This document shows, piece after piece, positions 25,359 to 64,000 of a DNA stretch of 64,000 bases. Position 1 is the first letter of the stretch. Every line of letters begins with the position of its first letter. Position numbers and translations under genes: made by a program. The DNA is taken from contig JBODTK010000011.1 in the NCBI GenBank assembly GCA_050613775.1, forward strand, positions 744,001 through 808,000, written 5' to 3'. A model generated the notes under the pieces. That model was given only the letters and a program-made list of their open reading frames with translations, was not told where the DNA came from and did no database searches. This DNA is from Neocallimastix sp. 'constans' (lineage: Eukaryota).

Positions 25359-25408
<50 letters not shown>

Positions 25409-33530: not shown

Positions 33531-33535
33531 CAAAA

Positions 33536-33995: not shown

Positions 33996-34003
33996 AGCTA
34001 CTA

Positions 34004-36525: not shown

Positions 36526-36557
<32 letters not shown>

Positions 36558-36833: not shown

Positions 36834-36865
<32 letters not shown>

Positions 36866-37219: not shown

Positions 37220-37391
37220 CTGTACTCTTAACATTCTCATATAATATTGATAAAATAATATAAAATATCTTTATTAAAATAAAATATTAATTAAATAAAA
37301 TATTAATAAAATTACATAATAAAAACACAAAATAATCTTCTTAAAACCCAAATATATAATAATATTAATTATTAAATTAAAAATCAATTAA

Positions 37392-40300: not shown

Positions 40301-42674
40301 CCAAAACTACAAAAATCAAGAAAATTTCAAAAATCATTCTGATGAAAATTTTTCTGATAATAAAAATTTTTCAAAAAATGAAGAAAATTCAATAAACAAA
40401 AACAAAAATTTTAATGAAACCTTATCGAATAATAATTCTAATCAAGAGATAAATTTTTCTGAAAATTCAAATATAAATAAGGTTAAAAATTCTAAAACTC
40501 AAAATAATAATGAAATTACTGATGAAGAAAAATTTTTTAATATTAACGACAAAACCTTATTTAATAAGAAATCCAATAATCAAGGAAAAGTTAATGAACA
40601 AACCAATATGTCTTCAAATAAATCTAATATAATTAAAGAAAATTTTAATAAAAATTTTTCTGAAACAAATATTAAAAATAATATATCTACCAGTACTACT
40701 GATAATATATCTAAATCCAAAAATTTTTCAAACCCAAATTATTATAATTTTCCTTCTTCTTCTCAAGAAAATACTATGTTTAATAGAAATAATATTATCT
40801 CTTCTTACATCGACAAAAAGTTCCCTTTTAATGGCAGAAGAAGTGTTAAAGAACTACATATAGATAACCAAAATTATTTTAATACAAATTCATTCAATAG
40901 AATTAATTTACCTCATCATAGGAGCAATTTTCATTTCAAAAATAATAAAAATTTTGAAAATGGAAATATTGATTACTTATTTTCAAATAATCATTTTAAA
41001 ATTAAGAAAAATAATTATTTACATATTAAAAAACAGTTTAATTTTAAAAAACACGGAAGGTCACTTTCGGACGATTTAACACCTTCCCAATCACAAAAAT
41101 TTCGTAGATCAAACTTTAATTCAAAAATTATTGCTACTTTGGATAATTTTGTACCCCAATCATTTTTCCAAGCCACAAATTGTAAAGACCACGTTCTATG
41201 GGAAAAAGCTATGGATAACGAACTGGATAATCTTTATACTAATAAAATTATGACTTTTGTGAACAATATTCCAGATGGTAAGAAACCCATTCCTTCCAAA
41301 TGGGTCTACGCTCTTAAGACTGATGGTCTTGGCCATATTATTAAACATAAAGCTCGTTTTGTCGCTAAAGGTTTCTCTCAAAAATATGGCATTGATTATG
41401 AGTTGACTTTCTCTCCTACCCTTAATATCGATTGTTTAAAACTTCTTATCTCCTTAGCTGCTAAATTTAAATGGGACATTCTCCAATTAGATATCAAAGC
41501 TGCGTATCTCAACGCGGATTTAGACAAAGATATCTATGTCAAAATTCCCCCTGGAGATCCTAACTTTGGGAGGGGATATTGGAAATTGAACAAAGCATTA
41601 TACGGTTTAAAACAATCTGGCCGACAATGGTATAATACCATCTCTAAATTTTTAATTGAACAAGGAATGGAGCAACTAAAATCTGAAAGTTGCGTTTTTA
41701 AGAAAATCGTAAATGGAAAATTAGTCTGTATAATTGGCTTATACGTAGACGATATGATTGTTACTGGAGAAAAGGAAGAAATTAACAAAATCTTCAATAA
41801 AATTAAAAACAAATTCAAGATCTCAAAATCTGGTCCAATAGACTACTTATTGGGAATTAAAGTTGAAAATAGAAATAACACTTATACATTATCTCAAACA
41901 CAATTTATAGAAAATATTTTAAAAACATTTAATATCAATAACAAAAGACTAAGAAAAACACCATGTGTTGGTGATAATACAATATCAGAAAATAACCAAC
42001 CATTCAACAAAACAAAATATAAAAGTGCAATTGGTATGTTAATTTATTTATCAAAATGTACCAGACCCGACATTGCATTTTCAGTCAACAAAGCTGCCAG
42101 AAATTCAGAAAATCCAACAGTATCTGACTGGCACAAAGTTATTGCAATATTACAATATTTAAAAAATACCAAAAATTACAAAATTAAATATGATGGCACT
42201 GGTAACATTGTAGGTTACACAGACTCAGACTTCGCTGGTGACGTTACTGACAGAAAATCAACATCTGGTAATATTATCTTAATGGGAAATAATCCAATAT
42301 CCTGGACCTCGAAAAAACAGTCAGTTGTCGCCACATCAACAGCAGAAGCTGAATACATAAGTGCGTCAGTATGTATCAAGAAATTATTAAGAATTAAAAA
42401 TATATTATACGAATTACTCAAATTTAATAAACCACTAACATTATTCACAGACAATAATGCAAGTAAAATTTCAATGGAAAATGGAGAATTAAATCCAAAA
42501 TTAAAACATATTTCAATTAAATATCACTTTAATAGAGACAATATTGAGAAAAATTTAATTAAATTAAAATATATCAGTACCGATAAAATGCTAGCTGACA
42601 CATTAACAAAATGTGTAAATGGTACTAAAATGACAACCTTTGCAAATCAAATTTTCATTACAAATGAAAACTGA
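37392..42674 (+). CDS. Copia Gag-Pol polyprotein (Gag-CCHC, protease, integrase, RT, RNase H), 1760 aa
   Basis: CEICERRGHSTKEC; WLYDSGA; WHRRLGH; HSDIIGP..SDNAKEY..NGLCER; LYGLKQSG; LYVDD; TDSDFAG..AEAEY..MLADTLTK. IN-RT-RH order is diagnostic of Copia. Confidence 0.98.
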   Translation: MSDFIPFKKEAILNGKNFNIWYDNLTDILEKDDLAEYLTKDILEEAKRDNTKKEEEIKEIKKTNTKVRYIIKNTINSKIHEDIIGMNTPYAIINYLREEYKLSENDMTQWISKLKNVKAEKETEIPSAIKEIFKLFNGMNSSGNIISEKEKVKYLLRALPKSYKMKLTLNGNETAEELKTTIVKDINTWLYVDEQTDKDQRSYDPMDIDYAGKLGYKNRKNLKNKNNNKNFSKKGNPSKQNNKEKFNNNKYNNNNKYCEICERRGHSTKECRYNPRNPNGLYNKYYIQDEQKLNNYHTHNNWHNGRPIRYINLNDEYNENISYDDIKPMFYKYYNPKSKGKYVDDDDSDEYQESEKSNCFINYDKEDVKNEVLIKNNIITRVENKLNLANEIFINNINKKEINTNNTNEIFNINYNKKETSEWLYDSGAGEHITNDLSLLKNFKKEKIKLRCANNTYCYFEGHGEFEFTINNYHFKFNKVLYSKEVAKNIISGIEWAKQDVKTLTEKDKHNNIILRILDNNYNIIATFQANNNNEVKIVVTHFNIENERNNKNNLMAIQNFRNAEELTWHRRLGHFYQEDLKNYLNNHEINLDKCDDCKIAKMKRNPHNKTPPRAKEILEVIHSDIIGPINTSYTGKRFILTILDEASRKSWVFIMKSKSEATDIIINTLRMLNNKYKDYKIKVFKSDNAKEYKNKKIDSFCNENGIEKVFSPPYNPENNGLCERFNLTIVPCAKTLLYWSGLSENFWDFAILYANYIYNKVPHSGIHNKIPDEIFYKNKVKINHIKVFGCITFYIDRSQNKSKFSPNSKKGIFLGFSEKTNSYIIMDFNDNSIHYCREIYCLEDTPANVKLANNKSNQYGDQEFLTFDFYFSKNLPDSSGGENHKAGNHSSKPSENKFNNNNKENSKNTKENYSSLPITNNDDLQENLNKDNSPKRDKWKSPETEDSNDTNINNNIGKDKEIKIAEEETQNYKNQENFKNHSDENFSDNKNFSKNEENSINKNKNFNETLSNNNSNQEINFSENSNINKVKNSKTQNNNEITDEEKFFNINDKTLFNKKSNNQGKVNEQTNMSSNKSNIIKENFNKNFSETNIKNNISTSTTDNISKSKNFSNPNYYNFPSSSQENTMFNRNNIISSYIDKKFPFNGRRSVKELHIDNQNYFNTNSFNRINLPHHRSNFHFKNNKNFENGNIDYLFSNNHFKIKKNNYLHIKKQFNFKKHGRSLSDDLTPSQSQKFRRSNFNSKIIATLDNFVPQSFFQATNCKDHVLWEKAMDNELDNLYTNKIMTFVNNIPDGKKPIPSKWVYALKTDGLGHIIKHKARFVAKGFSQKYGIDYELTFSPTLNIDCLKLLISLAAKFKWDILQLDIKAAYLNADLDKDIYVKIPPGDPNFGRGYWKLNKALYGLKQSGRQWYNTISKFLIEQGMEQLKSESCVFKKIVNGKLVCIIGLYVDDMIVTGEKEEINKIFNKIKNKFKISKSGPIDYLLGIKVENRNNTYTLSQTQFIENILKTFNINNKRLRKTPCVGDNTISENNQPFNKTKYKSAIGMLIYLSKCTRPDIAFSVNKAARNSENPTVSDWHKVIAILQYLKNTKNYKIKYDGTGNIVGYTDSDFAGDVTDRKSTSGNIILMGNNPISWTSKKQSVVATSTAEAEYISASVCIKKLLRIKNILYELLKFNKPLTLFTDNNASKISMENGELNPKLKHISIKYHFNRDNIEKNLIKLKYISTDKMLADTLTKCVNGTKMTTFANQIFITNEN

Positions 42675-43819
42675 TTTGAGGGGGAGTGTTAAAGTATTAA
42701 ATAATATAAATAAATAAACTTAATAATTTAGGTTTATAATTAAATAATAGAAAATATAAATCATAAATATTTATGTAAAAACTAAACTTAAAATGTAAAT
42801 TAACATTATTTATGTTAATACATAATTAAATGTAAATCATTAAATTTATCATGCGCATGTAAATAGTTTCTTTATTCTTGTTTATTCACGTGAAATAATA
42901 ATATAGTTTATATAAAAATAATTGTTTATTTTATAGACGAAAATTTGCGACTTTCGTCAATATAATATTTTATAATAAATAAATAAATGTATGAATAATT
43001 AATAATTAAATAAATTCCATTAATAATAATAATAATAAAAAAGTTTTTAATATTGATCATACGAACGAAAATAAAATTTTTAAAAATTATAAGATATATT
43101 TAAATATATAATTACAATGTTCTATGATCACATATAGATATTAACACGAGGGCTGAAATGATATAAAAATTGAAATTCACTTCTATGTAATTGGAATATT
43201 ATATTATTATTAATAATATAATTGTTAGTTACTAATTGCCCTTTGTTAAAACAGATATCGGCAAAAGCTATATCTCGTTATATCTATTAAAAAAAAAAAA
43301 ATATATATATATGTATATATGTAATATAAAAAATTATAAAATATTATTATTTATTTAATAAATAATTCATATGTATAATTTAAATTATTACTTATTTATT
43401 CATCTAATGAATAATATAACATATATATAATATAAATAATAAAATGTTATTATTTATTTAATAAATATGAAAAATATATAATATATAATATATAATTTAA
43501 AATTATTATTATTTTCATTCATTTAATGAATAATATACAATATATATATATATATTGTAAAATTAATTATTATTATTATTATTTATTTATTTATTAATGC
43601 AAAATATATATAAAATATAATATAAATTTATAAATTATTGCTCATTTAATTATTTATTTAAAATAAATTTTAATTCAAAATTTAAATTTCAATTTTTTAA
43701 ATTGAAATTGCAATTAAATATTTAATTTTATTTAAATTTTATTTCTTTTTAATATTTCTTAATTTATTATTTCTTAAATTGTTCTTCTTTCATTGAACAA
43801 TTCAAATGAAAAGGAGCAA

Positions 43820-44130
43820 TGTAAGAAATACAAATAAATTTATTAATAATTTATTTACATTTCTTAGTTATTATAATTTATTTAATTAAATATTTATTTA
43901 TTCATTTAATAATATAGTCATTTTATTTAACTTTATATTTATTTATACATTTAATAATTATATTTATTTTATTTAATTTATAATTATTTATTCACTTATA
44001 TTTATATATTAGTTAGAAAACAATATTAAGGTTTTCCCAAGTTAATTGGTTTTACTTAATATTGATTCATCTAGAGTTTTTCCGCTAATCTTTTCTCTAG
44101 ATGTAAAAAAGTTAAGGTTAGCAAAACTTT
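43820..44130 (+). mobile_element. Internal second PPT plus truncated E-type LTR inside the family A element
   Basis: GAAAAGGAGCAA-TGTAAGAAAT, then the conserved GGTTTTCC..GGTTTTACTTAAT..CTAATCTTTT block. Confidence 0.75.
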
Positions 44131-44813
44131 AAATAAATTATATAATTTTATATTTTTTTGGTTAATTATAATTTTTATTTTAAACTTACTACTTCTTTTA
44201 TGATAATGAATTTATACAAATTCATTAAGTAAAGGGAGCAATGTAAGAAACTTAGATAAATTTATTATAAAATTTATCTATCTTTCTTATTTAATACATT
44301 AATTTAATACATTAAATTATTGTATTTATTTTAACCAATAATATTTAATTATTAATTTATATATATTTGATTCTCTTGATTTCTCGAAGAGAACTCAAGA
44401 GTTATTATTTTAGAATTTTTATAATAAATAATAATTCAAATAAAATAATTAATTAATAAAACAAAACCCTTTTAATAAAACATATTTTATAAATATTTGT
44501 GTCTTTTATTCCTTTTGTGTTATTGTTTATTATAAACTTTCTATAATAAACTCTATCATATATTTAAGTTAAGTATAATTATTTATTTATATTATTTTAT
44601 ATTTATTTGATTATATTTAATTTTATTTTCTCAAATTAATGTTAATTAGTAATAATTAATGTTAATTTGTAGTTAAGAAATTATTTATAATAAATTTTAT
44701 AAGTAATTTCTTACATTGATTGGCCGAAATTGCTAACTGTTTAGAGATACGTTACGTAACCAAAGAACTATCATTGGATAGGCTTGAAGTTACCATGTAT
44801 CTGTTACAATAAC

Positions 44814-46089
44814 TGTAAAAGATACATGGTAACTTCAAGCCTATCCAATGATAGTCCTTTGGTTACGTGTTGAAATTATAACTGAATTGAAATCTCAATT
44901 TCAGTTATTTACATTTCAATAATTAAAAATATTATTTATTTAATTATAAATAATAAATAATATATAATTATATAATTAATAATTAATATAAATTCTTGTT
45001 TAATATTTAAAGGGTTATCTTAGGAATAATAATTCTGAGAATATTAATAAATAAGGTTTATATTAATAATTAATTTCAATTCTACATTTGACGTCACGTG
45101 TATTTTATTTATATTATGTTTTTATATATGTTTACAACATATCTATATTAATTTCAATTATTCAAATTAATTATATAATTAAATTTATCTTTATATTTTA
45201 TTAATATTTATATTACTATATTATTAATATCTTATAATTAAATATTATTATTATGTAACTTACAAAGTATTAAAGAAAGATGTTAAAATCTATCTTTTAT
45301 GCTCTTTGTAAGGTTATTGCAAAATTACCTTAATAGTAATATATTATAGATATTTCATTATTAAATAAAATTAATAATTTTAAAATCAAATTAATTTAAT
45401 AATTCTAATTATCAAAGTTTATTATAAATAAATTTTTATTAAACTAAACCATTTATATATTTATTATTATTATTATATATCTATATAGCTTATTACTATA
45501 TAGACATATCGACTTTGTAAATTTTTAATAAAACATATTATTTTATTTAAATTTAGAACATAAAATATATTAAAATCTTAATATTACGTAACGTATCTAA
45601 ACAGTTAGCAATTTCGGCTAATCAAATAAAATCTTTTCTTAATTTCGTACATTAAATTTTATTATTTTATAGTTAATTATATAGTTAAATATTTAGTTAA
45701 ATATATTTTATTTAGTGATTAGTAAACTAAGTTAAATTAAATTATTTACCAATCATAAAATTATTAACATGTATAAATAGTAATTGAACTTGAACTTGTA
45801 ACTGTAACGCACTAGCTTTACTATTAATGTAAATTGTTATTATAAATATTAATAAATAAAAATATAATTATTAAATAAATATAGTTACTTTGTGTAAGCC
45901 CAGTAACTAATAACGAATAGAGTTATAAAGTGCTGCGCTATATTCTAGTGTGACAGAAATAATATTTATAAATATAATTAATTTTAGTGTTTATTATTAA
46001 CAACTCGAATAGAGAGGTGTTAAGTTATCTTAACCTTTGAATTTAATTATTGTTCGTTATTTTAGTTAATAATAAACTTACCTTTTACA
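44814..46089. mobile_element. LTR family B, inverted copy (split by LTR F1); possible 5' LTR of the + strand Gypsy
   Basis: TGTAAAAGATAC...CCTTTTACA, ~555 bp after removing F1; reverse complement of 34949-35501. Confidence 0.85.
44868..45583. mobile_element. Solo LTR family F (F1), TSD TTACG
   Basis: TGTTGAAATT...CTTAATA flanked by TTACG; homologous to 59429-60132. Confidence 0.9.
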
Positions 46090-47106: not shown

Positions 47107-47528
47107 AGTCAAGATTATAACACGTGATACGTTAACAGTGGCTTGTGTGTGGCTTGATTCAAAATATTTTTTTACCAGAGATTTTACCAGGGAATTTTAG
47201 CTACCTACTTTTGACACCAACGCTTTTGGAATACTACCAGTCTAAGGGAATTACTACCAGTTTTAGATTATTGCTACCAGTTTCAGAATATTGCCACCAG
47301 CTCTATAATATTGCTACCGAAATTACAATTACACGTCTTAGAACAAGATTCGAAAAACCATAAACCTTTAATATTTTAATTTATAACGTTTCGTTTACTC
47401 GACAGCACCGCTTCAAAGGATAGAGCTAGATCGACTAGATGAAAAAACGTTATAGTTTGAAATATTTATTTGTTTGATATTTTTGTTAAAGAAATTGCAA
47501 AAATTTAAGTCAATTTAAAATAATCAAA

Positions 47529-50045
47529 TTGGAGGGATTTAACAACCTAATAAGAAGATTCGAAGATCTTAAACTGCAAGAAATGAATCAAGAGAATCAT
47601 CAAGTTCTGCCCCGTAACAATCAAAAGATTGTTAACGAACCACCGCTATTTTCTGGAATCAAGAAGGACTTTGATGGCTTCCTTACAAGAGCTGAAATAG
47701 CTATGGAAGCCAATCCACAAGGTTTCAATAATGACCATACAAAGGTCAGATTTATAATTTCTTATCTTGTCGGTGATCCCTTGATATGGGCCTCAAACTT
47801 GCGAAGAAATAATGATCCCCTGCTCAATGTTTATGAAGATTTTATTCAAGAATTAAGAAATCAATTTGGAGAGCAGGACATGAGCACAGTTGTCGCAAAC
47901 GGTAAATTATGCAGCATCCGACAACATAAATTTGGTCATGTTAGTGAGTATATAAATGAATTTAATAAAATCAGCAGACATTCAGATTTTAACGATTCTG
48001 CTAAGATTTATATGTTTGTAAAAGGACTTCACTACAAGATGAGGGAGCACCTTGCAGTGGTAAATCCAAATCCCAACAACTTAAGAAGACTTTTCACTGA
48101 TGTCCTTAGTATCGAAAGCTTAACTAAGAGACATGAAATAAATGAATTTTTCTATCATAATTATTACCATCGTAAGGAAATAAATAATAATAATCATGCG
48201 TCTACTAGTGATCCAATGGAAATAGATTTATACAGAATTAAGAGAGGACAAACTAATACAAGTTACTTCCCTTCTAACCAGAAATTATATCAAGAAAACT
48301 CGAATTCAAGAGATGAAGAAAGAAGGAAAGGATTGTGCTATTATTGTAAAAAACCAGGTCATCGCTATTTTAACTGTCCAAATAAGAAGAAACCTGCCGG
48401 AGTCAAGATTATCAGTAAACAAGAAAACACCGCTACCACACCCTCAAGTAGTTTAAGAAGAATCAGAAGAATCAACAGCCAAGAAGATATTGTCAAAGTT
48501 AGAAAAATCGTGGAAGAACAAAACTCACTATTGACAAAGAAAAGTAATATCATTGATTTCTATATTAAAACAAACGATACAGAAGAAGTAAAAGCAAGAG
48601 TTCTGATCGATTCTGGTTCTGATCTTAATTTTATCCATCCTGAATTCGCTAAAGCCTTTGGAATTAAAACAAAAGAAATCGAAGAACCTTTCCGTGTTAC
48701 TGGTCTTGGATATGGTGTTTCATCAGTAAAAAAGTAAACTGAGAAATGCGTTCTTCGTTTAAGGAACCACTTGGAAACGATTCAACTCTATGTTCTCAGG
48801 ATTCCTGATGTTGATATTATCTTGGGTTTACCATGGATCAATAAGCACTCCCCCTACAACTACCATGACGCAAAGAAGATTTCTTTCGGATCCGGTTTCT
48901 GTGCAAGACATTGTAACAATGGTAAAAGAAAAAGGAAAAACAAGAACAAGAAAAGGAACAAAGGAAAAGAACCTGCTACCGACCTAGAAGAAAACAAAGT
49001 TATTATTGAAGAATCAAGAAAAAGAAAACCTCTCTTTGACTCTGATTCCGACTCTGACTCAGAAGAAGAAATTTCTATTCGTGGCCGCCGAACTCGTATT
49101 AGAACTTGCTCTGAATTTAATAATTATGATAGTGATAGTGATATTAATGATACTTTTATGTTAGATAATTTTAGTGATAGCATTAGTGATAGTGATAACT
49201 TTAGCGATAGTGATGATATTATTGTTATGAATTGTGATAGTAAAATTAGTACTAATAGTTTAAGGATTTTAAAGAAAATTTGTGAATCTAGTAAATGTAA
49301 GTAATTAAATGTAATTGAAAAATGTAATGATGAAAATAATAATTTAAATAAAGATGGTGAAAAGGTCGAAGTACCTGAAATCTATTTGATGTTTAAAGAA
49401 GTGTTTAATGAAAATAATTGTAATGTGTTACCTCCGCATCGTAATTATGATTGTGAAATTAAATTAAAAGATAATTGTAGTCTATTTTATGGTCCGTTGT
49501 ACCCTTTAACTGAAACGGAGAGAGAAGAATTAAAGAAATATTTAGAAGAGAATTTAAAAAAGGGTTTTATTAGGAAATCTTCTTCTCCTGCTGGTGCACC
49601 TATTTTATTTGTTAGAAAAAAGGATGGTACTTATAGACTAGTTATTGATTATAGAAAATTGAACGAAATGACCATCCGTAACTCTTATCCACTTCCTCTA
49701 ATTAGTGAATTGTTGGATAGAGTTAAAGGTGCTAAATATTTTACTAAGTTAGATTTAAAATCTGCTTATAACTTAGTAAGAATTAAAGAAGGTGACGAGT
49801 ACAAAACTGCCTTTCGTACAAGATACGGGCACTTTGAATATCTCGTTATGCCTTTTGGGCTTAAGAATGCCCCTGCTACATTCCAACATTTTATAAATGA
49901 TGTTCTCAGTGATTACTTAGATGATTTTGTAATCTCTTATATTGATGACATTTTAATTTATTCAAATACTTTAGAAGAACACCATGTACATGTTAAGAAA
50001 GTTTTAAGAAAATTATTAGAGAATCATTTAGTTGTAAAATTTTAA
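47529..50045 (+). pseudogene. Ty3/Gypsy (Tf1/chromovirus-like) gag-pol, two in-frame stops, truncated in RT
   Basis: The three ORFs share one frame. Gag with CYYCKKPGHRYFNC; protease [39 protein letters not shown]. Coding sequence ends abruptly at ~50040; no RNase H or integrase. Confidence 0.93.
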
Positions 50046-50358
50046 TAATAATATTTAATAGTTATAATAAATAAACTTTTATAATAATATTTAATTAATA
50101 GTTTTTAATAATTTAGTATTTTAAAAGTATAATTTTAATATTTACAATTGTATTTTAACATATACATATATTTAATAGTATGACAATAAAGTAAGTAATT
50201 AAAATTGATTTAACATTATTTACAAGTTAAAATTAATTTATATCAAAATAAATTAAATTTTATTATTAAGTTTAGGTTATCAAGAATATAGGAAAGTACA
50301 ATTTAGTAAAGAATTATTAATAATAAAATAAAGGTTATTAATTCATTCTTTACCAATA

Positions 50359-51150
50359 TGTAAGAAACTATAATTATTTGTTAAATAATTATAATTTCTT
50401 TATTTGATTATTTATCTATTACATAATTTATATATTCATTCATTAAATTTGTAATTATTTATCAAGTTAATATGTATTTGTACATTTAATTATAGTTTTA
50501 ATTTAATTAAAATTTTTCTTTAAATTTATTTAGTATACATTTATTTTATTTAATTTATTTAATTAATTATAAATTTTATTAATTTCTATAGTAATAAATT
50601 AATTATTTAATTATTATTTTTAAATTAAAATTTGAATTAACTTATTCGGACTTTAAAGTTTTTTATTTTCTTATTAAAATATAAATTAATTTTATCGGAC
50701 TTTAAGGTTTTTTCTAATTTATTATAATAATAAATTTGTTTTTCCTTAAAGAACTTATCTAGTTTTTTCTTCTAATCTTTTTCTAGATAAGATAATTGTT
50801 AAGATTAGAAAACCTTTTAAATTATTATTTTATATAAAATTTCATTATTTAATTTTTCGTATAAATAGCTATTGATTTCTCTAAATTTTTGAGAAATCAA
50901 GAGTTATTATTATATAACAAATATTAAATAAATATATAATAATAATAAATAAAATCTACAACATTTTCGATAAGTGTTCTTTTATTTTGTGTTGTTTATT
51001 ATATTTGTTTATAATAAACTCTTCTTTGTCAAGATAAGTTAAAATTTTCTTTATTTTTTTTAATTGTTTTCTTATTTTCTCAACTTGATGTTAGTATCAG
51101 GTTGTAGTTAATAATTTTGTTATAATAAATATTATAATGAAATTATTACA
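50359..51150 (+). mobile_element. Solo LTR family C (792 bp), TSD CAATA
   Basis: TGTAAGAAAC...TTATTACA; inverted copy at 58194-58984. Confidence 0.92.
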
Positions 51151-51156
51151 CAATAA

Positions 51157-52340
51157 TGTTGGGGTTCATATTAGAAAAGGAGTGTGAACATTAAATAAAT
51201 AGATAAATTAAATAACTACTAAATTACACTAAAAGAATTTATTATTACACATTATAAATTTTATTTAAAGAATTATTATTAAAAATATTTATTATTTATA
51301 AATTATATAATTATTTTATTGTTAGAAATACTTTATTAATATTAATATTTATTTTTATAACAATATGGGAAACCTTTCAATTATTACTATTCCTAATTCA
51401 TTTTTACTACTATTTCTAATTCTTTTCTCAGAAAGGCCCCCTTCATAAAAATAATATGGATTATACATATTTTATATTATTTAATTACATTATTAAAATC
51501 CAAACATATAAATTAATTAATTACATAAATTAATATTTAAAAATATAAAATATAATTAATATAAAAATTATTAATATAGAATATAAGAAAATTATTAATA
51601 GTAAAGAATATAATAATATATTTTTATATAATAAATTATGTTAAAGTTTTTAGATAATTTGGTCTTAACGATTAGACAAAGATGCCAAATTATAGTAATT
51701 AATTAATAATTTTAATTTTACTCTTATTTAAAACATATTGTTATTAGTAAATTTTATAATTAAGTTTTTATTTAAAAAATAAATTTTATTTAATCTTAAT
51801 AATATTTTATTATATTATTATTTTATGTAATTATTACTATAATTTAAATTACAATAATCCTACAAAGGATTAATCAAAAGACTTAAACATGTATTTATAT
51901 AAAATAATTAATTATTAAAATATTAATTATTAATATGAATATGTAATAGTATTAATATAAGTTTGATATTGATAATATAAACTAAGATAATAATATAAAT
52001 ATTTAATATAAATAAAATATAAGAATCTAATATAGCTAAATATTATATTTTATAATTAAAATATAATATGTAGAAATTAATTTAATGACAATCACGTGTC
52101 TACATTATTTAATATATATTAATTTCAATATGTTAATAATATTTAGTCAATTAGTTGGCCTAGACTATTTCCTAAATATTTTAATAATAATTATTATATT
52201 ATTAATTATTAATATTGAAATTTAAATAACTGAATTATTAAAATTGAAATTGAATTAAATGGAAATTCAGTTATTATCTTAACAAATTATCAAGAATTTA
52301 ATTTATATTAAAAATATCATTATTATTTCATTCTTTATCA
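51157..52340 (-). mobile_element. G-type LTR unit (LTR ~51157-51430, antisense PPT, remnant), containing F3
   Basis: TGTTGGGGTTC start; GAAAGGCCCCCTTC at 51431 resembles the antisense PPT at 60717; ends TTCATTCTTTATCA; flanked by ATAA. Confidence 0.65.
51639..52284. mobile_element. Solo LTR family F (F3, inverted relative to F1/F2), TSD AATTA
   Basis: TGTTAAAG...CTTAACA; ATAACTGAATT..AATTCAGTTAT hairpin at the right end; flanked by AATTA. Confidence 0.82.
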
Positions 52341-52344
52341 ATAA

Positions 52345-53173
52345 TGTCATGGTTCGGGTTTTATTAGAATTTTTATTTAATTATTTATTTTTTTCTGTCT
52401 ACATTTTAATTATTGAAAAACTTCACTTATTTATACTTTTTGAAAAAAAAATAAATATGTAAAGCCTTTCTACATTTTATTATCATATTTAAAAAAAATA
52501 TTTACTATTACTAATTACTTAAAATTTTATATTAATTTAAATTAACTAATTCATAAATATTTTTATTTTAATAAATTTTGTTTATATAATTTTATGTTAT
52601 TTTTCATATACTAAAACTAAATTATTTAATATATACGAAAAGAAACAAACAAAATTTAAAAAGATTTTACAGAAAAATAAAGTTATTTTAATCAAGACTA
52701 TTAATATAATATTCTTATATTTTATATAAAATAAATTTAAAAACTATAATATATTTAATATTTATTATTAATCAATTAAGATTTGATTTTATTTGTAGGG
52801 AATAAAAATATTAAATAATCAATTTAAAAATAAAATAAAATACTAAAAAGAATACAATTTTAATATTGATACAATATAATAATAATATAATAATATATTT
52901 TAAAATAAAAATATAATATTAATATTGATAATAAACACTTAATAAAATAATAAAATTTTAGGTTAAATTATAGATATTAATATTAATAATAAAAATATAG
53001 AATTATTGATAATATTTTAGAAACTTTTAATAAAAATATAAAAAAAAATATATTTATAAAATAATTTAGTATAGAAAATATAGTAAAGTAAAATTAAGTA
53101 AAGAACAATATAATGGATTCTAAAGTAAGTTGAAATTCTAATTAATAATCCATTTTATGTTCGTTCTTTACCG
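52345..53173 (-). mobile_element. G-type solo LTR, TSD ATAA
   Basis: TGTCATGGTTC...TTCGTTCTTTACCG with ATAA on both sides. Confidence 0.7.
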
Positions 53174-53177
53174 ATAA

Positions 53178-53965
53178 TGGTATGGTTCATATAGTTTTAG
53201 GAATATAATAATAATTAACACAAATAATAAAATTACAATAAAAAAAAATTTGGTTTAAAATCAATATTTATTTATTTAAATTTATAAAAGAAAAATAATA
53301 ATATAATTATTTATTTTAATAAAAGAAAGTTATTGATTATATTTTATTTCACTAAAAATTACATGTATTTATATTTTTTTATCAAATTAAAATTTGTAAA
53401 GTATAACTATTTTTTTTAATAAACTAATTACTAATTATTTTAATAAATAAAACATTTAAATTGAAATTGAATTATTATTTTAGTTAATAACATTATTGTT
53501 ATAAATATTAGTTTTATATTATTGAATTATTAATTATTTAATAATAGTTTAATATTAATATATATAGAATAAAAATAAAGAGATTATACAGAATATTTTA
53601 ATTGTGGTTTAGCTAAATTTAGTAATTAAAAATAAATTTAAATTGATAATGAAAATTTTAATAACTAATTAAATAGATTTGATTATTTTCAATATAACAT
53701 ATTATAAAAGAAATATAATATTAATATATTAAGTGGGCAAGGACAATATTCTTGGCTAAAGATTTTTGATACTTTATAATGGAATCGGATCGATAATTCA
53801 AAAAGGAATTATAGGTTGATTGGTGATTTATTAACTTAAGATTTCTATTTAGTAATATTTGAAGAATATTGGAAAGTTCCAATTATATAGAATAGAATAA
53901 TCTATAAGGTTAGAATAATTTATATTATTCTAGCACAATTAGTATTATTTGTTCATTCTGTATTA
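53178..53965 (-). mobile_element. G-type solo LTR, TSD ATAA
   Basis: TGGTATGGTTC...TTCATTCTGTATTA. Confidence 0.7.
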
Positions 53966-53968
53966 ATA

Positions 53969-54878
53969 TGTAATAATTCTATTAAGAACTAACTCAAAAT
54001 AGAATTATTAACTACAACTTAACGACTAATTCATTAAGTTGAGAAAACAAAATAAAATAAATTTTTTTACCTTTAGAGTTTATTATAAAATTAATTATAA
54101 TAATAACACAAAAAGTAAGAGAAGAATTGTTTGTATAAATTGATTTTAAAAATATGTTTTTGAATAAAATATTTTTATTAATTTATTAAAGTTAAAAATA
54201 TAAAATTGTTACTATTATAACTATGTTTTTTATAATAATAACTCTTGATTTCTCAAAGAGAACTCAAGAGCCTTATTTATATTTTTTATGAAAATAAGGC
54301 TAAATAAGAAAGGGTTTTCTAATCTTAACAAATCTCTTATCTAGGAAAAGATTAGATAGAAAAACCTAGATAAGTTTTCGAGCGATATTCTATCCATATC
54401 GATCATCGCATTAATTAAGTAAAACCGATTACTTCTAAAAAGTAATTGGAAAAAATCTTAATTAACCGATTTTCCAATCTAATCTAATGATCGAAAATAA
54501 AAGAATAAAATAATAAAAGATATTTCGATCATATAATTTATCCTTATATTAAAAATATAAAATTAAATAGTTAATAAAATACAGAATACATTATAAAATA
54601 CAAAATACATTATAAAATACAGAATACAATACAATACAGAATACAATACAATACAGAATACAATACAATACAGAATACATTAGTTACAGTAGAGAATTTA
54701 ACGTATTGTAAATATATTATTTAAAATTAATTAAATAAATTTTGTTAAATTAATGAATATTTAAAATTAAATTAAATAAATTTAATAAATATTATATGTA
54801 ATTAAATAAAGTTATAGTTATAATAACTTAACTAAGAAAATATAATTATTTGTTAGAAAATAATTATAGATTCTTACA
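53969..54878 (-). mobile_element. Solo LTR, E-type, TSD TAATA
   Basis: TGTAATAATT...TTCTTACA, with hairpin and conserved block; TAATA on both sides. Confidence 0.88.
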
Positions 54879-54884
54879 TAATAA

Positions 54885-55687
54885 TGGTACAAGATCTGAA
54901 GATTTTATTAATAAAATAATATATTCTAATAATAAGGAAAAATTTAAAATGATATTCCCTAATTCTAAACCTAAATTAATTAATATACTATTCTAATTTT
55001 AGTCTAAACTATCCTAATCTAAAAGAATCTAAACTAAATTAAAATAACATAAACTAATATCCTAATCTAAACTATTCTAATCTAAACTAAACAATTTCTC
55101 TAAATCTATTACTATTTCTATAAAATGTTTAATACAACTAATCTATTACTAAACTAATTTTATACTATACTATCTTAATATTATACACTAAATACAAAAA
55201 CTATTAATTAAACACTTTTAAAACACTAAATTTAGAAAAACTATTTAATAAATATTAATTTATTTTAAACTATTTAATTTATTATTTAACTTTTAGAAAA
55301 TATTAAAAAAATAATATAATAATAAAGTCGTAAGAAAAAAGGGAGAGAACAAAAGTATTGTGTTACTTTGTTCTTTTTTATACTAATAAAATATTTATTT
55401 GATTGGATTAAAAATAAAAAAATTTAATAATAAAAATATAATAAACTTAAATTTTCTAAATTATTAAAATATTATATAAAAATTTTACAATATTAAATAA
55501 TATAATTAATACATGATTTTTCAATACATCTAATTATTTTTATTTAACTTTATAATATTCTATAACTAATATTTTAATATTCAATTTTTTTTTTTTTTAT
55601 ATTTATTTATAATTGTTAGTAATATTTTTTTACTTTAATATTTTCTTTAAATAATTTAATTTTTCTTTATTTAATTGTACCGTAACA
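54885..55687 (-). mobile_element. G/D-type solo LTR
   Basis: TGGTACAAG...GTACCGTAACA; the end resembles the D-type GTACCGTATCA. Confidence 0.65.
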
Positions 55688-55690
55688 TAA

Positions 55691-56163
55691 TGTAAGAAAT
55701 TACTTATAAAATTAATTATAAATAATTTCTTAACTACAAATTAACATTAATTATTACTAATTAACATTAATTTGAGAAAATAAAATTAAATATAATTAAA
55801 TAAATATAAAATAATATAAATAAATAATTATACTTAACTTAAATATATGATAGAGTTTATTATAGAAAGTTTATAATAAACAATAACACAAAAGGAATAA
55901 AAGACACAAATATTTATAAAATATGTTTTATTAAAAGGGTTTTGTTTTATTAATTAATTATTTTATTTGAATTATTATTTATTATAAAAATTCTAAAATA
56001 ATAACTCTTGATTTCTCGAAGAGAACTCAAGAGAATCGAATATATATAAATTAATAATTAAATATTATTGGTTAAAATAAATACAATAATTTAATGTATT
56101 AAATTAATGTATTAAATAAGAAAGATAGATAAATTTATAATAAATTTATCTAAATTTCTTACA
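55691..56163 (-). mobile_element. Solo LTR family A, TSD CATAA
   Basis: Reverse complement of 44242-44715; CATAA on both sides. Confidence 0.95.
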
Positions 56164-56168
56164 CATAA

Positions 56169-56664
56169 TGATACGATATTTTTATTAAACATCAATATCA
56201 ATATTTATTTTATTTTATTTGGACGATAACAGTAGGGAATAATTGACAAAATAATATATTCTAATATTATATAGAATAATACACACAATAATAATATTCA
56301 CACTTTATTATTTAGTTTATTTATTTTATTTATTTATTATCATTCATCAATAAAAATACATCATCAATATAAATATTTGTTAACTAGTTAAAATATAATT
56401 AAATCATTCAATAAAATATAATTATTTACTCAAATTTCTTATGTTATTAATGTAAACTAAATATAAAACTATACTAAACTATACTAATAAACATGTTTAT
56501 AGGTTAAATTATTAATAAAACTAAATTAATATTAATAAAAGAACCATTCCTTAAACTATTATTATTTACTAACTATATATATTATTACTAAATTATTATT
56601 AACCAATAAGATTTCACTAACCTAAATTTCACTAAATTATGGTATTTATGGTGGTACCGTATCA
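56169..56664 (-). mobile_element. Solo LTR, D-type
   Basis: TGATACG...CGTATCA terminal inverted repeat. Confidence 0.85.
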
Positions 56665-56667
56665 ATA

Positions 56668-57590
56668 TGTAAGAAATAATAATAAATTTTTAAATTTTAA
56701 TTATTATTTCTTATTATGTATTAATATATTAAATACTTAATAATTAGAAATACATTATTTTTACATTATCATTATTTATTTTGTAACAATGTACTATAAC
56801 TATTACATGTAAAATTATTTAAAAATTAGGAGTAGTTAACCAATTATTAGTTAAACTTAATAATTAAAAATTTTATTAATATTAGTTAAACTTAATAATT
56901 AAAAATTTTATTAATATTAGTTAATATTTATTCGTTATAATTATTATTTAAATGTTTAGACATAATCAAAAATTATTTAAAATTTTTCATAACAAAAAAT
57001 TTTTTCTAAATTTGGACAAATTTTTTCAATTTTTAATTTTTTTTATTTATTATTTTGGACATTTAATTAAAATTATTTATTATAAAAATAATTAGAAAAT
57101 CGATCTTTAAGGTTTTCCCGAATACTGATTGGTATCGGTTTTACTTAATGATCCGATGATTAATATGTTTAGAATATTAATCGAAACTTATTTAGGTTTT
57201 TCTTCTAATCTTTTCCTAAATAAGAAATTTGTTAAGATTAGACAATATTTAATTTAAAATTTTGAAAAGTATAAATAGAGACTCTTAAGTTCTTTTAGAA
57301 ATTAAGAGTTATTATTATAAGAAAAATAATAATAACAATAAAATTTTATAAATTAATAACAATAAATTTATTCTTTTTTAATCTTAAAATAAATTTTATT
57401 TATTATTTTTTTTTTTTTTTTTAAAAAAAAAAAATAATAAATTAAATTTATTTAAATTTTCTTATAATAAACTCGATTTATTTTAATAAAACAAATTTAA
57501 ATTTCTCAATTTTAGTTAATAATAATATTATTAATATAAAATTGTAGAATAGAAATTGATATAAAAGAATTTTTATTTCAATTTCTAACA
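56668..57590 (+). mobile_element. Solo LTR, E-type, TSD CAATA
   Basis: TGTAAGAAAT...ATTTCTAACA; conserved block and AAGAGTTATTAT. Confidence 0.88.
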
Positions 57591-57595
57591 CAATA

Positions 57596-57975
57596 TGATA
57601 CGATTTATTTTTAATAATACCATAAATTAATATTTATTTTTTTATCCGAGACGAATAACAAAAGGGAATTTTACAAAATAATATTTTCTAATAAAAGTAT
57701 AACTTTTCTATTATAAGTAATAAACAAAAATCCACCATATAATAATTTAATTCTATTTTATTAACAAAATGATAAAGCTCACAAAATAATTTAAATAAAT
57801 AAATCATAAATATAAATTTCACTTTATTTTTATTTAATAACTTTTATTTTTATTTTATTTTATTTTTTTTTTTTTTTTTTTTTTTTTTTATTATTTATTT
57901 TTTTTTATTTATTTTCAATAATAATATCACAAATACAATCTTCAATAATTAACTAAAACTACTCTTTTTCTCAAC

Positions 57976-58019
<44 letters not shown>

Positions 58020-58190
58020 CTCCTTTTATAATTTTTCTATTCTTTTTATTATTGGTTCTTCTTATTTTGGTTTAATTAATAATTTAGTTCTATAATATAA
58101 CAGCAATTATTTAGTTAATAATTAAAATATTTTTTTTAATTATTAAGTCACCATTTGATATTTTATAACATATATTCCTGTAACGTATCA
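57596..58190 (-). mobile_element. Solo LTR, D-type
   Basis: TGATACG...CGTATCA; the start is similar to 56169. Confidence 0.82.
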
Positions 58191-58193
58191 AAT

Positions 58194-58984
58194 TGTAATA
58201 ATTTCATTATAATATTTATTATAACAAAATTATTAACTACAACCTGATACTAACATCAAGTTGAGAAAATAAGAAAACAATTAGAAAAAATAAAGAAAAT
58301 TTTAACTTATCTTAACACAGAAGAGTTTATTATAAACAAATATAATAAACAACACAAAATAAAAGAACACTTATTGATAATGTTTGTAGATTTTATTAAT
58401 TATTATTATATATTTATTAATATTTGTTATATAATAATAACTCTTGATTTCTCAAAAAATTTAGAGAAATCAATAGCTATTTATACGAAAAATTAAATAA
58501 TAAAAATTTATATAAAATAATAATTTAAAAGGTTTTCTAATCTTAACAATTATCTTATCTAGAAAAAGATTAGAAGAAAAAACTAGATAAGTTCTTTAAG
58601 GAAAAACCAATTTATTAATATAATAAATTAGAAAAAACCTTAAAGTCCGATAAAATTAATTTATATTTTAATAAGAAAATAAAAAACTTTAAAGTCCGAA
58701 TAAGTTAATTCAAATTTTAATTAAAAATAATAATTAAATAATTAAATAATTAATTTAATATTATAGAAATTAATAAAATTTACAATTAATTGAATAAAAT
58801 AAATGTATACTAAGTAAATTTAAAGAAAATTTTTAATTAAATTAAAATTATAATTAAATGTACAAATACATATTAACTTGATAAATAATTACTAATTTAA
58901 TGAATGAATGTATAAATTATGTAATAGATAAATAATCAAATAAAGAAATTATAATTATTTAACAAATAATTATAGTTTCTTACA
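58194..58984 (-). mobile_element. Solo LTR family C, TSD CAAAT
   Basis: Reverse complement of 50359-51150. Confidence 0.92.
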
Positions 58985-58989
58985 CAAAT

Positions 58990-60180
58990 TGTAAGAAATT
59001 ACTTATAAAATTAATTATAAATAATTTCTTAACTACAAATTAACATTAATTATTACTAATTAACATTAATTTGAGAAAATAAAATTAAATATAATTAAAT
59101 AAATATAAAATATTATAAATAAATAATTATACTTAACTTAAATATATGATAGAGTTTATTATAGAAAGTTTATAATAAACAATAACACAAAAGGAATAAA
59201 AGACACAAATATTTATAAAATATGTTTTATTAAAAGGGTTTTGTTTTATTAATTAATTATTTTATTTGAATTATTATTTATTATAAAAATTCTAAAATAA
59301 TAACTCTTGATTTCTCGAAGAGAACTCAAGAGAATCAAACATATATAAATTAATAAATAAATATTATTGGTTAAACTAAATACAATAATTTAATGTATTA
59401 AATTAATGTATTAAATAAGAAAGATAGATGTTGAAATTATAACTGAATTGAAATCTCAATTTCAGTTATTTACATTTCAATAGTTAAAAAATATTATTTA
59501 TTTAATTATAAATAATATACATATTTAAATAATTAATAATTAATATAAATTCTTATTTAATATTTAAAGAATTATCTTAGGCCTAATAATTCTGAGAATA
59601 TTAGTAAATAAGATTTATATTAATAATTTCAATTATCTACATATGACGTCACATGTATTTATTTATATTATGTTTATATATATGTTTATATCATATATAT
59701 TAATTACTATTTTTAATTATTCAAATTAATTATACAAATTAAATTTATTTAATTATATTAAATATTTTAAACATATCAATATTGTTATTATTTTAATATT
59801 TTATTAATATTCATTTTACTATATTATTATAATCTTATAATTAAATACTATTATTATGTAACTTACAAGTATAAAAGAAAGATGTAAAAATCTATCTTTT
59901 ATGTTCTTTGTAAGGTTATAGTTAACCTATTATAATATAACTATATATTTTTATTAATAAATAAAAATTTTTTATCATATCAAACCAATTATTAGTTTTA
60001 ATTAAATGTTAAATTAACAAATTTAACTTTATAACTCTTTTATTTTAGTAATTTACTTATATCTATATAGTTATATTATATAGATATATCAACCTGATTC
60101 CTCGTTAAATTCAATCTGTCTACTTTTTAACAATAGATAAATTTTATAATAAAATAATAAATTTATCTAAGTTTCTTACA
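58990..60180 (-). mobile_element. Solo LTR family A (split by F2), TSD CAAAT/CAAGT
   Basis: Matches 55691-56163 and resumes after 60137. Confidence 0.92.
59429..60132. mobile_element. Solo LTR family F (F2), TSD ATAGA
   Basis: TGTTGAAATT...TTTAACA flanked by ATAGA. Confidence 0.92.
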
Positions 60181-60187
60181 CAAGTAA

Positions 60188-60850
60188 TGATACAATTAAT
60201 TTAAAAAGTATCATAAAATATGGGAAAAGCAAGAGGGAATTAATCAAGAAATATTGTATTTATGAAATAGTATAATAATTATATATTTATATAATACACT
60301 CAAATTATTATTTTAGAATATAATGTTCATTTTATTATGTTTATTTATTAAAATTATTCACTTTATTATATTTATTTATTAAAATAATTATTCACTATTA
60401 TTCATTCTCAATTAATACATTTCAATAAAAATAAAAACACAACATTTTTTTTATAATTAAAACTTCCTAATTTTTATCTTATTATTCTCTATATTATTAT
60501 TATTTAAAATTTGTACTTTTACATAATTAATTATATTATATATATTTTTATAATAAACTTATATTAATAATAAAATAATAAAATAATTTTATAATATTAT
60601 ATCTTATTAAATATTAATTTTAACTTATTTAGAAAATATTAATAATAAAATTATTTACAATAATATTTAAAATAATAATTATATCACTTTACATTCTTAT
60701 TAAATATCTCGTATCAGAACGCCCCTTCTTTAGACATGACTTCGTCCCTTGAAGTCAAAATAGAACAAAGTTAATATATATATTATTAAATATTTATAAT
60801 AAAATTTTTTTTATAAATTTTTTTTTTTTTTTTTTATAAATTTTTTTATA

Positions 60851-60898
<48 letters not shown>

Positions 60899-60909
60899 AA
60901 TTTTTTATA

Positions 60910-60952
<43 letters not shown>

Positions 60953-63900
60953 ATATATATATATTTTTTATAATATTACTCTTATTATTATTATTATTAT
61001 TATTATTTAAATTTTTTTTTTTTTTTTTTTTTTTAAAAAAATTAATTTTGTTTCTTTAATCTTTAAATTCAATAAAGTTAGTAATATAAGGAATAACATT
61101 TTTTAAATGAATGTTTCTTTCTGCTATTTCGTTAGTTATTGGATCACAAACAGTGACTGTGTTAAATTGTTGTTTCACAATTTTTAAAGGTCCTAAAAAA
61201 TATGGATCCAATTTTCTTCTATTAAAATTTCTGATTAATACTAAATCTCCAGGTCTAAAAGAACTTCGGAGTCGTTTTATTTGTTTCCTTCTATCACTCC
61301 ACAATTTATTTGCTGTTTCTATATTTTCTATTGCTTCCTTTATCCATTGATTATGATATATGAATTTCCTGATATAATATTCTTCTTCAGTTTCCTCAGG
61401 AAGTCTTTCATCCATATTAATAGTAAGTCCAAATGGTTGTAAGTCTCTTCTACCGTATAGTAATTCGAAACTACTATACTTAGTCACTTCATTTCTACAC
61501 GTCCTAAGTGCCCATAATGCACTTGGTAGAAGATCATCCCATTCCTTGTCATTACTTCCTAGAATCCTTAAGTATTTAGAGATTTCCCGGTTACGATTTT
61601 CTACCTCACCATTTGACGCAGGATGATATGTACTAATATAATGTACATAAACATCATTCAAATCTAAAAAAGCCTTGGTTTTATCCGCTACAAATTGTGG
61701 TCCATTATCTGTTATTAATAATTCAGGAATTCCATGTCTTGCAAAAACATTAGTGAGAAATCTTATAACATCTTCTGATTCTGTTTTTTTTAATGGCTCC
61801 GCTTCTACCCATTTGGTTAGGTAATCTACTAAAACTATTATATATCGGTTTCCATGCTTTGTTCTGTATAATGGTCCAATTAAATCTAATCCAACTCTAG
61901 AAAATGGTAGACCAGGTGGAGTAGCCAAATCTTCAGGATAGCTATTCGTTGGCTGAGGTTTGCAAGTTTGGCAATTATGACAACATTTAATAAATAATTT
62001 GATATCTTTGATCATACCCTTCCAGTAAAAATCTCTTCTCAGCCTATGATAGGTTTTATAAATGCCCTCATGTCCTATAGTATGAGCTGCATTTATTAAT
62101 TTCCATTTTTCTTCTTGATTGTTGATAACTTTCCTTAATATATTATTTTGTTTATAATATAGTATATTATCTATTTTAACAAATTTTTGATTAATATAAT
62201 TTTCTAAAAAATTATTTAAACAATTTCCACTATCCACAACATTATTGTTATTATTGTCATCAACTTTATTATTGTTATTATTAATATTATTATTACTATT
62301 ATAAGGATCATTAATATTAATAAATATATTATTAATTTCTTCTTTTTTATCTTTATTATTATTTTCTAAAATTTTATATTCTTCAATTTTTTCATTTAGT
62401 ATTCTTGTATTATTAACGCTATTAATAATATTATTATTTTTATTTTCATTATTTAGATTTTTATTGACATCCTTATTTTCATTATTTAAATTTTTATTTT
62501 TATTTTTATTTTCATTATCCTCAATATTAATTTTATTTTTGACTTTATTGTTATTTTCCTTAATAGTAAATTTATTTTTATTATTTTTGAAAGTGAATTT
62601 ATTAATGTTTTCATTAATAATATTTTTATTATTATTTTCATTTGTAATATTTGTAATTTTGCTTTTATCTTTAATATTATCTCCATTATTTATTAACTTT
62701 TCCTTTAAATCATTTTTATATTTTCCAACGTTATTAGTTTCTTTGTTTTGGTTATTAAATAACCCCTCCCCCTCCTTAAAATTGTTATTAATATTTAAAG
62801 AATTTTTATTGTCATTGATATTAATTTTATAATCTTTTTTAACAGACATTCTAGATAAAGCATCAGCAACTACGTTTTTCTTACCTTCTTCATATTTAAC
62901 ATTAATTTTTAAAGTACTAAATTCTGTTATCCATCTTACATGGCGACTGGAAGTAGGTTCCTTATTATTAAAAATATAAACTAATGGTTTGTGGTCAGTA
63001 AAAAGAATAGTTTCAAAACTATTGCCTGTAAGAAAAGGTTTAAATTTTTTTACACAATAGAAAGCAGCTAGACCTTCAAGTTCTGTTATACTATAGTTGT
63101 TTTCAGCGTTAGATAGAGTTCTACTTTCATAATATAAGGGTTTTTCAATGTTATTATCATCAAGTTGTAATAGTACTCCTCCAATACCCGCTTTTGATGC
63201 ATCAGTACGAATTATAAATGGCTTATTAAAATTAGGAGGTGATAAAATTGGAGCTTTAACTAGTTGAGTTTTTAAATATTCAAAGGCTATATTACATTTA
63301 GTAGACCAAATAAAAGGAGTATCTTTCTTAGTTAGTTCATATAAGGGTTTAGCAATTTGAGCAAAATTACTAATAAATTTCCGGTAGTACCCAATTGCTC
63401 AAAGGAATGAACGTAATTGTTTAATATTAGTAGGAGGTAACCAATTAGTAATTATTTCAATTTTAGAAATCATAGGTTTAATACCTTTAGTTGATAGAGT
63501 GTGACCTAATAAATCGACTTCTTCTTGAAAGAAGTGGCATTTTTCGAAATTGACTTTGAGTCCATTATTATTAAGAATTTGGAATACTTTTTCAATGTCT
63601 TTTACGTGTTGTTCCAACGAACTAGAATAAATAACTAAATCATCAATATAGATAAAAACACATACACCAATTAGATCAAAGAAAATTCTATTCATCTCCC
63701 TTTGGAAGGTTGCGGGAGCATTACAAAGACCAAACGGCATGACTTCAAAATTAAAATTGCCATACAAAGTAGTAAAACAAGTAATATCTTTATCATCAGG
63801 ATGCATCGGAATTTGATGATATCCTGAAAATAAGTCAATCGTAGATAATATTGTGGTATCACCACTGATATAATAAAGTATGTCATCAATAAGAGGAAGA

Positions 63901-64000
63901 GCATATGCATCCTTTAAAGTACAGTTATTAATCTTCCTATAATCAACACACATTCTAACTTGTCCATTTTTCTTCGGAACAAGTACAACGGGGGAAGACC
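60188..64000 (-). mobile_element. Ty3/Gypsy element running off the window; D-type 3' LTR 60188-60716, PPT 60717-60731
   Basis: TGATAC...CGTATCA LTR; minus-strand PPT AAAGAAGGGGCGTTC; pol upstream. Confidence 0.92.
61056..64000 (-). pseudogene. Gypsy pol (RT-RNase H-integrase), one in-frame TGA at 63399-63401
   Basis: CVDYRKIN, MPFGLCNAP, YIDD; RSFL*AIGYYRKFI; TDAS (RNase H); AHTIGH..CHNC; LDLIGP..TDNGPQF..NGEVE; GPY/F-like LDPYFLGP. All in one frame; no chromodomain seen. Confidence 0.93.

Follow-up and report, generated by a model that had tools for sequence, protein, structure and literature searches.

The 64,000-nucleotide stretch of the Neocallimastix sp. 'constans' genome analysed here (contig JBODTK010000011.1, positions 744,001 to 808,000; hereafter the window) carries near its right end a pile of 14 long terminal repeats (LTRs), derived from two types of retrotransposon and set back to back. 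The window has a GC content of 17.5%, and the Gypsy proteins encoded in it have named homologues in Neocallimastix, Piromyces and Orpinomyces. Host genes are confined to the part left of ~26.3 kb, and from ~27 kb to the window end almost all of the sequence consists of repeats. The LTR units, numbered U1 to U14 from left to right, fill ~50,043–60,716, with neighbours separated by only 3–7 bases; the spacers total 57 bases within a 10.36-kb block and read, from left to right, ATA, CAATAA, ATAA, ATAA, ATA, TAATAA, TAA, CATAA, ATA, CAATA, AAT, CAAAT and CAAGTAA. All 13 junctions and start coordinates given in a first-pass annotation of this DNA proved exact on re-reading, and the pile is real.

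The units fall into two groups, termed G/D and A/C/E after their LTR families. Among the G/D units, all placed on the minus strand, U1 (50043–50355, start approximate) is a G-type LTR whose left end was removed by the break of a truncated plus-strand Gypsy of the chromodomain-bearing clade (47490–50045); it adjoins the truncated reverse transcriptase (RT) of that element, and its right end, TTCATTCTTTACCA, is common to U3–U5. U3 (51157–52340), a G-type solo LTR flanked by ATAA/ATAA, has a minus-strand start like the 3' LTR start of L010, a related contig. The G-type solo LTRs U4 (52345–53173, ATAA/ATAA, one terminus CG) and U5 (53178–53965, one terminus TA) are recognized from terminal motifs only, and U7 (54885–55687) is a solo LTR with termini like those of the related contig L002. 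The D-type solo LTR U9 (56169–56664) aligns with U11 and with a copy at 33.5 kb, and the end of its U5 region matches that of L001. U11 (57596–58190), also a D-type solo LTR, has the duplication AATA and lies 1 bp off register, a shift that persists in the junctions to its right. The last unit, U14, occupies 60188–60716. The A/C/E group comprises six solo LTRs: U2 (50359–51150, plus strand, CAATA/CAATA) and U12 (58194–58984, minus, CAAAT/CAAAT), family C copies that are 97.2% identical and mutually inverted; U6 (53969–54878, minus, TAATA/TAATA), which displays the conserved A/C/E core, and U10 (56668–57590, plus, CAATA/CAATA), both of family E; and U8 (55691–56163, minus, CATAA/CATAA) and U13 (58990–60180, minus, CAAAT/CAAGT), family A copies that are 98.7% identical. 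A family F LTR (59429–60132, strand not assigned, duplication ATAGA) is nested in U13.

U14 is the 3' LTR of a chromodomain-less, minus-strand Gypsy, since it adjoins the polypurine tract (60717–60731, minus) and then the integrase. The pol gene of this element (RT, RNase H, integrase) lies at 61056–63998 on the minus strand and extends past the window end; the element had been described as still coding, but its pol contains one in-frame stop at 63399–63401. The order RT–RNase H–integrase and a TG...CA LTR following a polypurine tract, both features of Ty3/Gypsy elements, are present in the window; a primer site after the 5' LTR was seen only in the relatives L001, L002 and L011. These relatives (L001, L002, L009–L013) are stray contigs in prokaryote bins that have the same layout as the window Gypsy, and the arrangement around the polypurine tract recurs in L001, L002, L010 and L011. 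More broadly, L001–L003, L009–L013 and L210–L217 are gut-fungal Gypsy contigs contaminating five prokaryote bins.

Comparison of their ends with those of the relatives assigns the eight G/D units to a single chromodomain-less Ty3/Gypsy clade found in gut fungi. The minus-strand terminus of U3 matches L010 with a score of 10, reached by 0.1% of random stretches, and the U5-region end of U9 matches L001 with a score of 12; the match of U7 to L002 is weaker than either. The minus orientation of U1, U4 and U5 is taken from motifs shared with U3, and that of U11 from its similarity to U9; the single orientation proposed for the group thus likely applies to 8/8 units. The G units have only terminal motifs in common, their bodies not aligning above shuffled controls, and among D units the only significant alignment is that of U9 with U11, U14 being grouped by its termini. 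Overall, G/D units are far more diverse than A/C/E units. The treatment of G and D as separate superfamilies was rejected, as was the idea that the spacers are remnants of primer sites, the corresponding spacers of the relatives being AAATT, TACAAATT and AT.

In an RT tree of 25 rows, none of them a named Ty3, DGLT-A or Tj1 sequence, the G/D clade (99/99) is set apart from the clade containing the window's plus-strand Gypsy (100/99). No chromodomain was found in the window G/D integrase or in the 6/6 related pols scanned, and a Chromo entry was absent from the Pfam column of the 120 RT matches listed out of 5422. The clade is large: most of the 120 matches listed of these 5422 are 55–99% identical. 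In the plus-strand Gypsy clade, Pfam Chromo is called in L210, and another member has a chromodomain-like tail that Pfam does not call. The G/D integrase terminates ~37 residues past the GP motif, so its tether would have to be something different from the additional C-terminal domain of Ty3. A long Asn-rich linker at 62300–62830 (minus) joins RNase H to the integrase, in the region that DGLT-A and Ty3 use for TFIIIC contact, and is a candidate tether. Searches with the integrase returned only generic integrase clusters from the Atlas, and nothing from viral contigs.

The A/C/E units share a common core that aligns far above shuffled controls. Their type is best read from the one full copy, a two-LTR, non-coding family A element located outside the stack (35527–44715, plus strand). 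Its 5' LTR is followed by a 12-base site whose complement occurs at LTR position 156, without mismatch in the 3' LTR and with a single one in the 5' LTR, and a purine tract lies directly ahead of the 3' LTR. The same primer site forms a loose end in 9 contigs of sequencing run X1. By these features family A has a primer site of the self-priming (Tf1/sushi) type, able to pair with what is predicted to be the transcript's 5' end, and the A/C/E LTRs are classed accordingly; the layout implies that the stack copies are oriented four minus and two plus. The sole likeness to the chromovirus-type clade is to L210 and L211, in the polypurine tract and the TGTAA start; no coding A/C/E copy was found. 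A/C/E is likely a second Ty3/Gypsy lineage. The two groups had been called unrelated, which does not hold in the broad sense, G/D being Ty3/Gypsy and A/C/E likely so; judging by the two duplication lengths, the A/C/E integrase would differ from that of G/D. A scan of metagenome contigs for the A/C/E core motif gave one match, in sequence that looked bacterial and was taken for chance; viral contigs gave none. The read evidence on family A is a consensus loose end, 268 further loose ends lying outside those listed; a head-to-tail A-CAATT-A joint, absent from the window, occurs in 2/4 read runs.

The junctions follow a consistent grammar. The 5-bp duplications claimed for A/C/E units, in both orientations, were borne out: they are perfect in 5/6 units, and the sixth matches in 4 of 5 positions. 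The joint chance of such flanking repeats is ~3e-12, a figure that considers base composition only, for units picked after seeing the data. All six duplications begin with CA or TA; as first described, the left neighbour's final two bases lie inside the duplication in 5/6 cases, and the TG of the right neighbour in 0/6. Duplications of 4 bp were confirmed generally for G/D units; U7 departs from them, with either a 3-bp duplication or the loss of one base, and the duplication of U14 is beyond the reach of this count, its partner LTR lying outside the window. G/D duplications end at offset 0 to the right boundary in 6/7 cases and start 0–3 bp from the left neighbour. That the stack is an assembly artefact, or a chance clustering of high-copy repeats, is highly improbable. 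Word depths of family A run in the thousands, and the structure is known from the assembly alone; but the junctions are all distinct and yet obey one bookkeeping rule, sister copies differ by 1.3–2.8% with one pair inverted, the 5-bp duplications far exceed chance, and in 14 runs half or more of the words sampled from 54000–63990 are present.

Two approaches were used to reconstruct the order of insertion. Rebuilding the pile forward, with the right boundary kept fixed and offsets of 0 to -2, reproduced 13/13 junctions with one mismatch; the offsets were fitted, making this a consistency check, and the rebuild predicts ATAA past the 5' LTR outside the window. At this one locus, the 13 insertions thus agree with the proposal that each fell within ~2 bp of one point. 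The second approach, a removal test exhaustive over the orders of the 12 inner units, left no order with zero mismatches; allowing one mismatch left 7,983,360 of 479,001,600 orders and eight forced relations, every one left-before-right, and allowing two left three forced relations, again all left-before-right. U1 precedes U2 by the same kind of sequence argument. The first-pass annotation had read the pile as a record running from old on the left to young on the right: every order forced by the junctions has this direction, but most forced relations only place an A/C/E unit after its left G/D neighbour. A timeline is favoured by the blocked order of the G/D families (G,G,G,G,U7,D,D,D; such blocking occurs in 6 of 280 arrangements) and by the position of the sole unit with an internal region, U14, at the far right. 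The A copies U8 and U13, five steps apart, differ at 6/473 sites (1.3%), and the C copies U2 and U12, ten steps apart, at 22/782 (2.8%), a two-point comparison; given a divergence of just 2.8% between the C copies, the bulk of the pile likely arose within a short time, out of families that were active together.

A different account of the same junctions dispenses with any host gene. In it, both integrases recognize the U3-region end of an existing G/D LTR together with its ATAA duplication, so that new copies could wedge into any junction and the order of units would be no timeline. Such self-targeting would explain why 5/6 A/C/E duplications begin exactly at the terminal CA/TA of a G/D LTR and, if the A/C/E units came later, why 6/7 G/D units lie at offset 0 from the previous G/D end; it also accommodates the millions of orders compatible with the junctions. 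There is precedent in Drosophila, where double insertion at one site gives tandem elements with one duplication between them (10.1101/158386). Against it, G/D LTRs have just a few terminal bases in common, and TCAATAA-like words are frequent at this base composition; the families are grouped in blocks, the one element that still has its internal region stands at the far right, and joints of the A-to-A kind exist (U12/U13 in the stack, A-CAATT-A in reads). We consider self-targeting unlikely.

The junction grammar reappears, by sequence, in an older and decayed cluster at 30400–33999 (minus strand). A/C/E-type units ending at 30827, 31759 and 33530, with spacers CTACA and CAAAA, are followed there by a D-type LTR (33536–~33999, left limit approximate, minus) with decayed termini and 74% identity to U9. 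The alignment of this old D copy with U9 scores 174, the null maximum being 64; the unit ends are supported with z of 3.7–5.4, the unit starts not being significant. The copy is AT-shifted relative to U9 (34 to 22), a weak signal. The cluster may mark a site of its own, or it may once have been the oldest part of this pile, since separated from the rest as 16 kb of further insertions accumulated; with simple family succession, finding a U9-like unit to the left of the G units is at odds. A plain duplicate of a stack segment was rejected, as the unit order differs. To the right of the old D copy lies a 101-aa open frame with cysteines (33989–34294), which has only a sub-threshold match to IBR (E 0.038). 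The lack of a visible anchor beside this cluster speaks for self-targeting.

On balance, we favour repeated integration at the start of a gene transcribed by RNA polymerase III (Pol III), predicted to lie to the right beyond the window and most likely a tRNA gene, followed by collapse to solo LTRs; this is probably how the stack arose. The reading draws on the positional precision of the insertions, the absence of a chromodomain and precedent from other systems. G/D integrases would cut with a 4-bp stagger and insert in one orientation, the Pol III initiation complex fixing the distance. A second integrase, likely of the chromovirus type, would mobilize the non-coding A/C/E elements and cut the same spot with a 5-bp stagger, in either orientation, starting at a CA/TA step. 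New insertions would push earlier ones to the left, and recombination between the two LTRs of one element would leave a solo LTR. The TCAATA-like stack junctions resemble the ttCAan start motif of Ty3 sites; speculatively, each G/D insertion could recreate a TCAATA start-like motif, so that the site would renew itself.

Several observations weigh against this account. No tRNA was detected in the window by ARAGORN, with or without introns at the default score, and lowered thresholds gave AT-rich noise only; none was found by ARAGORN to the right of the older cluster either, where AGCT, not ATAA, directly follows the old D copy. No other non-coding RNA or Pol III gene was found in the window with Rfam at E up to 1, the output being three microRNA-type matches on one palindrome, and no tRNA surrounds an isolated B-box-like word at 16764. 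The far flank of the 5' LTR was reached by none of the fetched loci; the contigs recovered for these elements either end at their LTRs or have them collapsed. BLAST with three LTR queries gave no match among the 240 pattern-scan loci listed from genome contigs, and the 20 of 157 tRNA matches inspected from the five bins with fungal contigs look prokaryotic by GC and their first 120 bases. The G/D integrase has no room for the domain that binds Brf1 in Ty3. Family A is very high in copy number, its full element sits inside a long-inverted-repeat element, and an A-like LTR lies inside the gag region in L013: targeted insertion, claimed for A/C/E, is supported by the offset precision in the stack but offset by family A copies outside stacks, and A/C/E targeting is a preference, not a rule. 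In 5/6 A/C/E units the cut keeps a constant register with the end of the left neighbour and not with the right boundary. For the chronology, the expected age gradient gave no signal, either in private substitutions (U8 2, U13 4; the C pair symmetric) or in GC loss, and among G/D units order is forced only for U9 before U11, so the strict tape is something we infer. Finally, as said above, the structure comes from assembled sequence.

All the evidence for polarity needs only a fixed right boundary, and from ~27 kb the window is almost all repeats. A right anchor of another kind would also serve, for instance a site occupied by a protein, the border of a centromere or of heterochromatin, or a conserved repeat recognized through its sequence. 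We hold this to be quite unlikely: chromatin-guided targeting is regional, and base-pair precision in LTR elements is known mainly from Pol III starts (PMC5911963).

Other features of the window surround these subjects. The last host gene ahead of the repeat island is a Rab-GAP TBC gene with introns (22094–26241). At 28555–29700 the G/D Gypsy clade has left decayed remnants on the plus strand, opposite in orientation to the stack, in which protease precedes gag; a purine tract lies near 30060. The full A element contains a nested Copia (36866–43025) that is young, with an intact 1760-aa open reading frame and 339-bp LTRs 99.7% identical. On both sides of the A element itself (35409–35527 and 44716–44834) lie, in place of a 5-bp duplication, 119 bp of host-repeat sequence that are 100% identical to each other, although the LTRs of the element differ by 2.5%; this duplication may stem from an aberrant integration next to a hairpin, from recombination or from the assembly. 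The surrounding repeat has inverted arms of ~500 bp, 91% identical (34949–35452 and 45584–46089), and is a foldback element or one like a miniature inverted-repeat transposable element; it has a central 115-bp hairpin (palindrome 44754–44868), and related sequence also lies past the 3' LTR in L002. Within the family A LTR core, a hairpin loop is inverted between the two LTRs (~44370–44400 versus ~35655–35690), a micro-inversion adjoining the predicted transcript start. At 43820–44236, inside the A element and directly before its 3' LTR, there is another LTR start of the A/C/E kind, accompanied by a purine tract of its own.

Both repeated insertion at Pol III starts and tandem dimers with a single intervening duplication are already known. 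A literature search judged from its listings found no report of a solo-LTR pile this deep common to two integrase types, and none of targeted LTR elements in gut fungi. We advance only tentatively, as somewhat less than an even prospect, the wider proposal that gut fungi have two independently evolved LTR systems targeting Pol III starts at the same base pairs, a self-renewing site, and tRNA genes with tape-like records of invasion. The two systems would be a chromodomain-less Gypsy clade with fixed orientation, 4-bp duplications and no Ty3 tether, and self-priming chromovirus derivatives with 5-bp duplications; the tape would be 14 units deep, possibly at least 18 if the 30–34 kb cluster is the old end of the pile. 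If the anchor is a Pol III gene, base-precise targeting of tRNA genes extends to anaerobic gut fungi, two integrase types converge on one site, and the G/D clade needs a tether other than that of Ty3. The pile would then be a dated record of jumping-gene invasions; ordered stacks of this kind would expose family turnover, the rate of solo-LTR formation and the mutation rate in long-read genomes, and an oriented, site-specific integrase would indicate where inserts could land safely in fungi that have been difficult to engineer. If there is no gene at the anchor, polarized stacking of this precision would be stranger still.

To our knowledge, positional precision at the base-pair level is found, among LTR elements, mainly at Pol III starts. 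The LTR systems that target tRNA and other Pol III genes, tabulated in a review (PMC5911963), offer several points of comparison. DGLT-A, a Ty3/Gypsy element of Dictyostelium, inserts 13–33 bp upstream of tRNA genes, and a single gene can have several copies (PMC5006619, PMC6101501); within that interval either orientation occurs (PMC5911963). The G/D elements resemble it in lacking a chromodomain, in a GPY/F-type motif near the integrase end, in leaving solo LTRs and, in the relatives L001, L002 and L011, in a primer site a few bases from the LTR, a likeness of features; they differ in that 8/8 units likely share one orientation within 1 bp, the relatives have two open reading frames, and the anchor is only predicted. 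Yarrowia Tyl3 and Tyl6 also lack a chromodomain and are located at tRNA starts (PMC5014426). In Saccharomyces cerevisiae, Ty3 sites coincide with the Pol III start motif ttCAan and with flexible YR (pyrimidine–purine) steps (PMC6673722), and Ty3 binds Brf1 through a vestigial chromodomain after its C-terminal domain (10.1101/2021.07.27.453949). G/D units are like Ty3 in inserting within a few bases of one point and in the CA/YR step at the cut, and Ty3 is the best match among solved structures for the RT–RNase H of the relative L001. Ty3, however, makes 5-bp duplications in both orientations, whereas G/D makes 4-bp ones with an integrase that is short after the GP motif; lacking both the vestigial chromodomain after the C-terminal domain and the 5-bp duplication, G/D falls outside the Ty3 lineage proper. 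For the A/C/E group, the closest parallel is Tj1 of Schizosaccharomyces japonicus, a self-priming, Tf1-type element with a 5-bp duplication and fixed orientation at Pol III starts (PMC4600332). The self-priming layout of Tf1 and Tj1 (PMC4600332) matches that of the A element, whose primer site is complementary to LTR-internal sequence, and the duplication length is the same; Tj1, though, is coding and of fixed orientation, whereas A/C/E units lie in both orientations, their full copy is non-coding, and family A also occurs elsewhere. The tandem dimers described in Drosophila by McGurk and Barbash, formed by double insertion, are head-to-tail and keep one duplication (10.1101/158386); these mostly involve one family, whereas the Neocallimastix stack joins 14 units from at least five LTR families with two duplication lengths.

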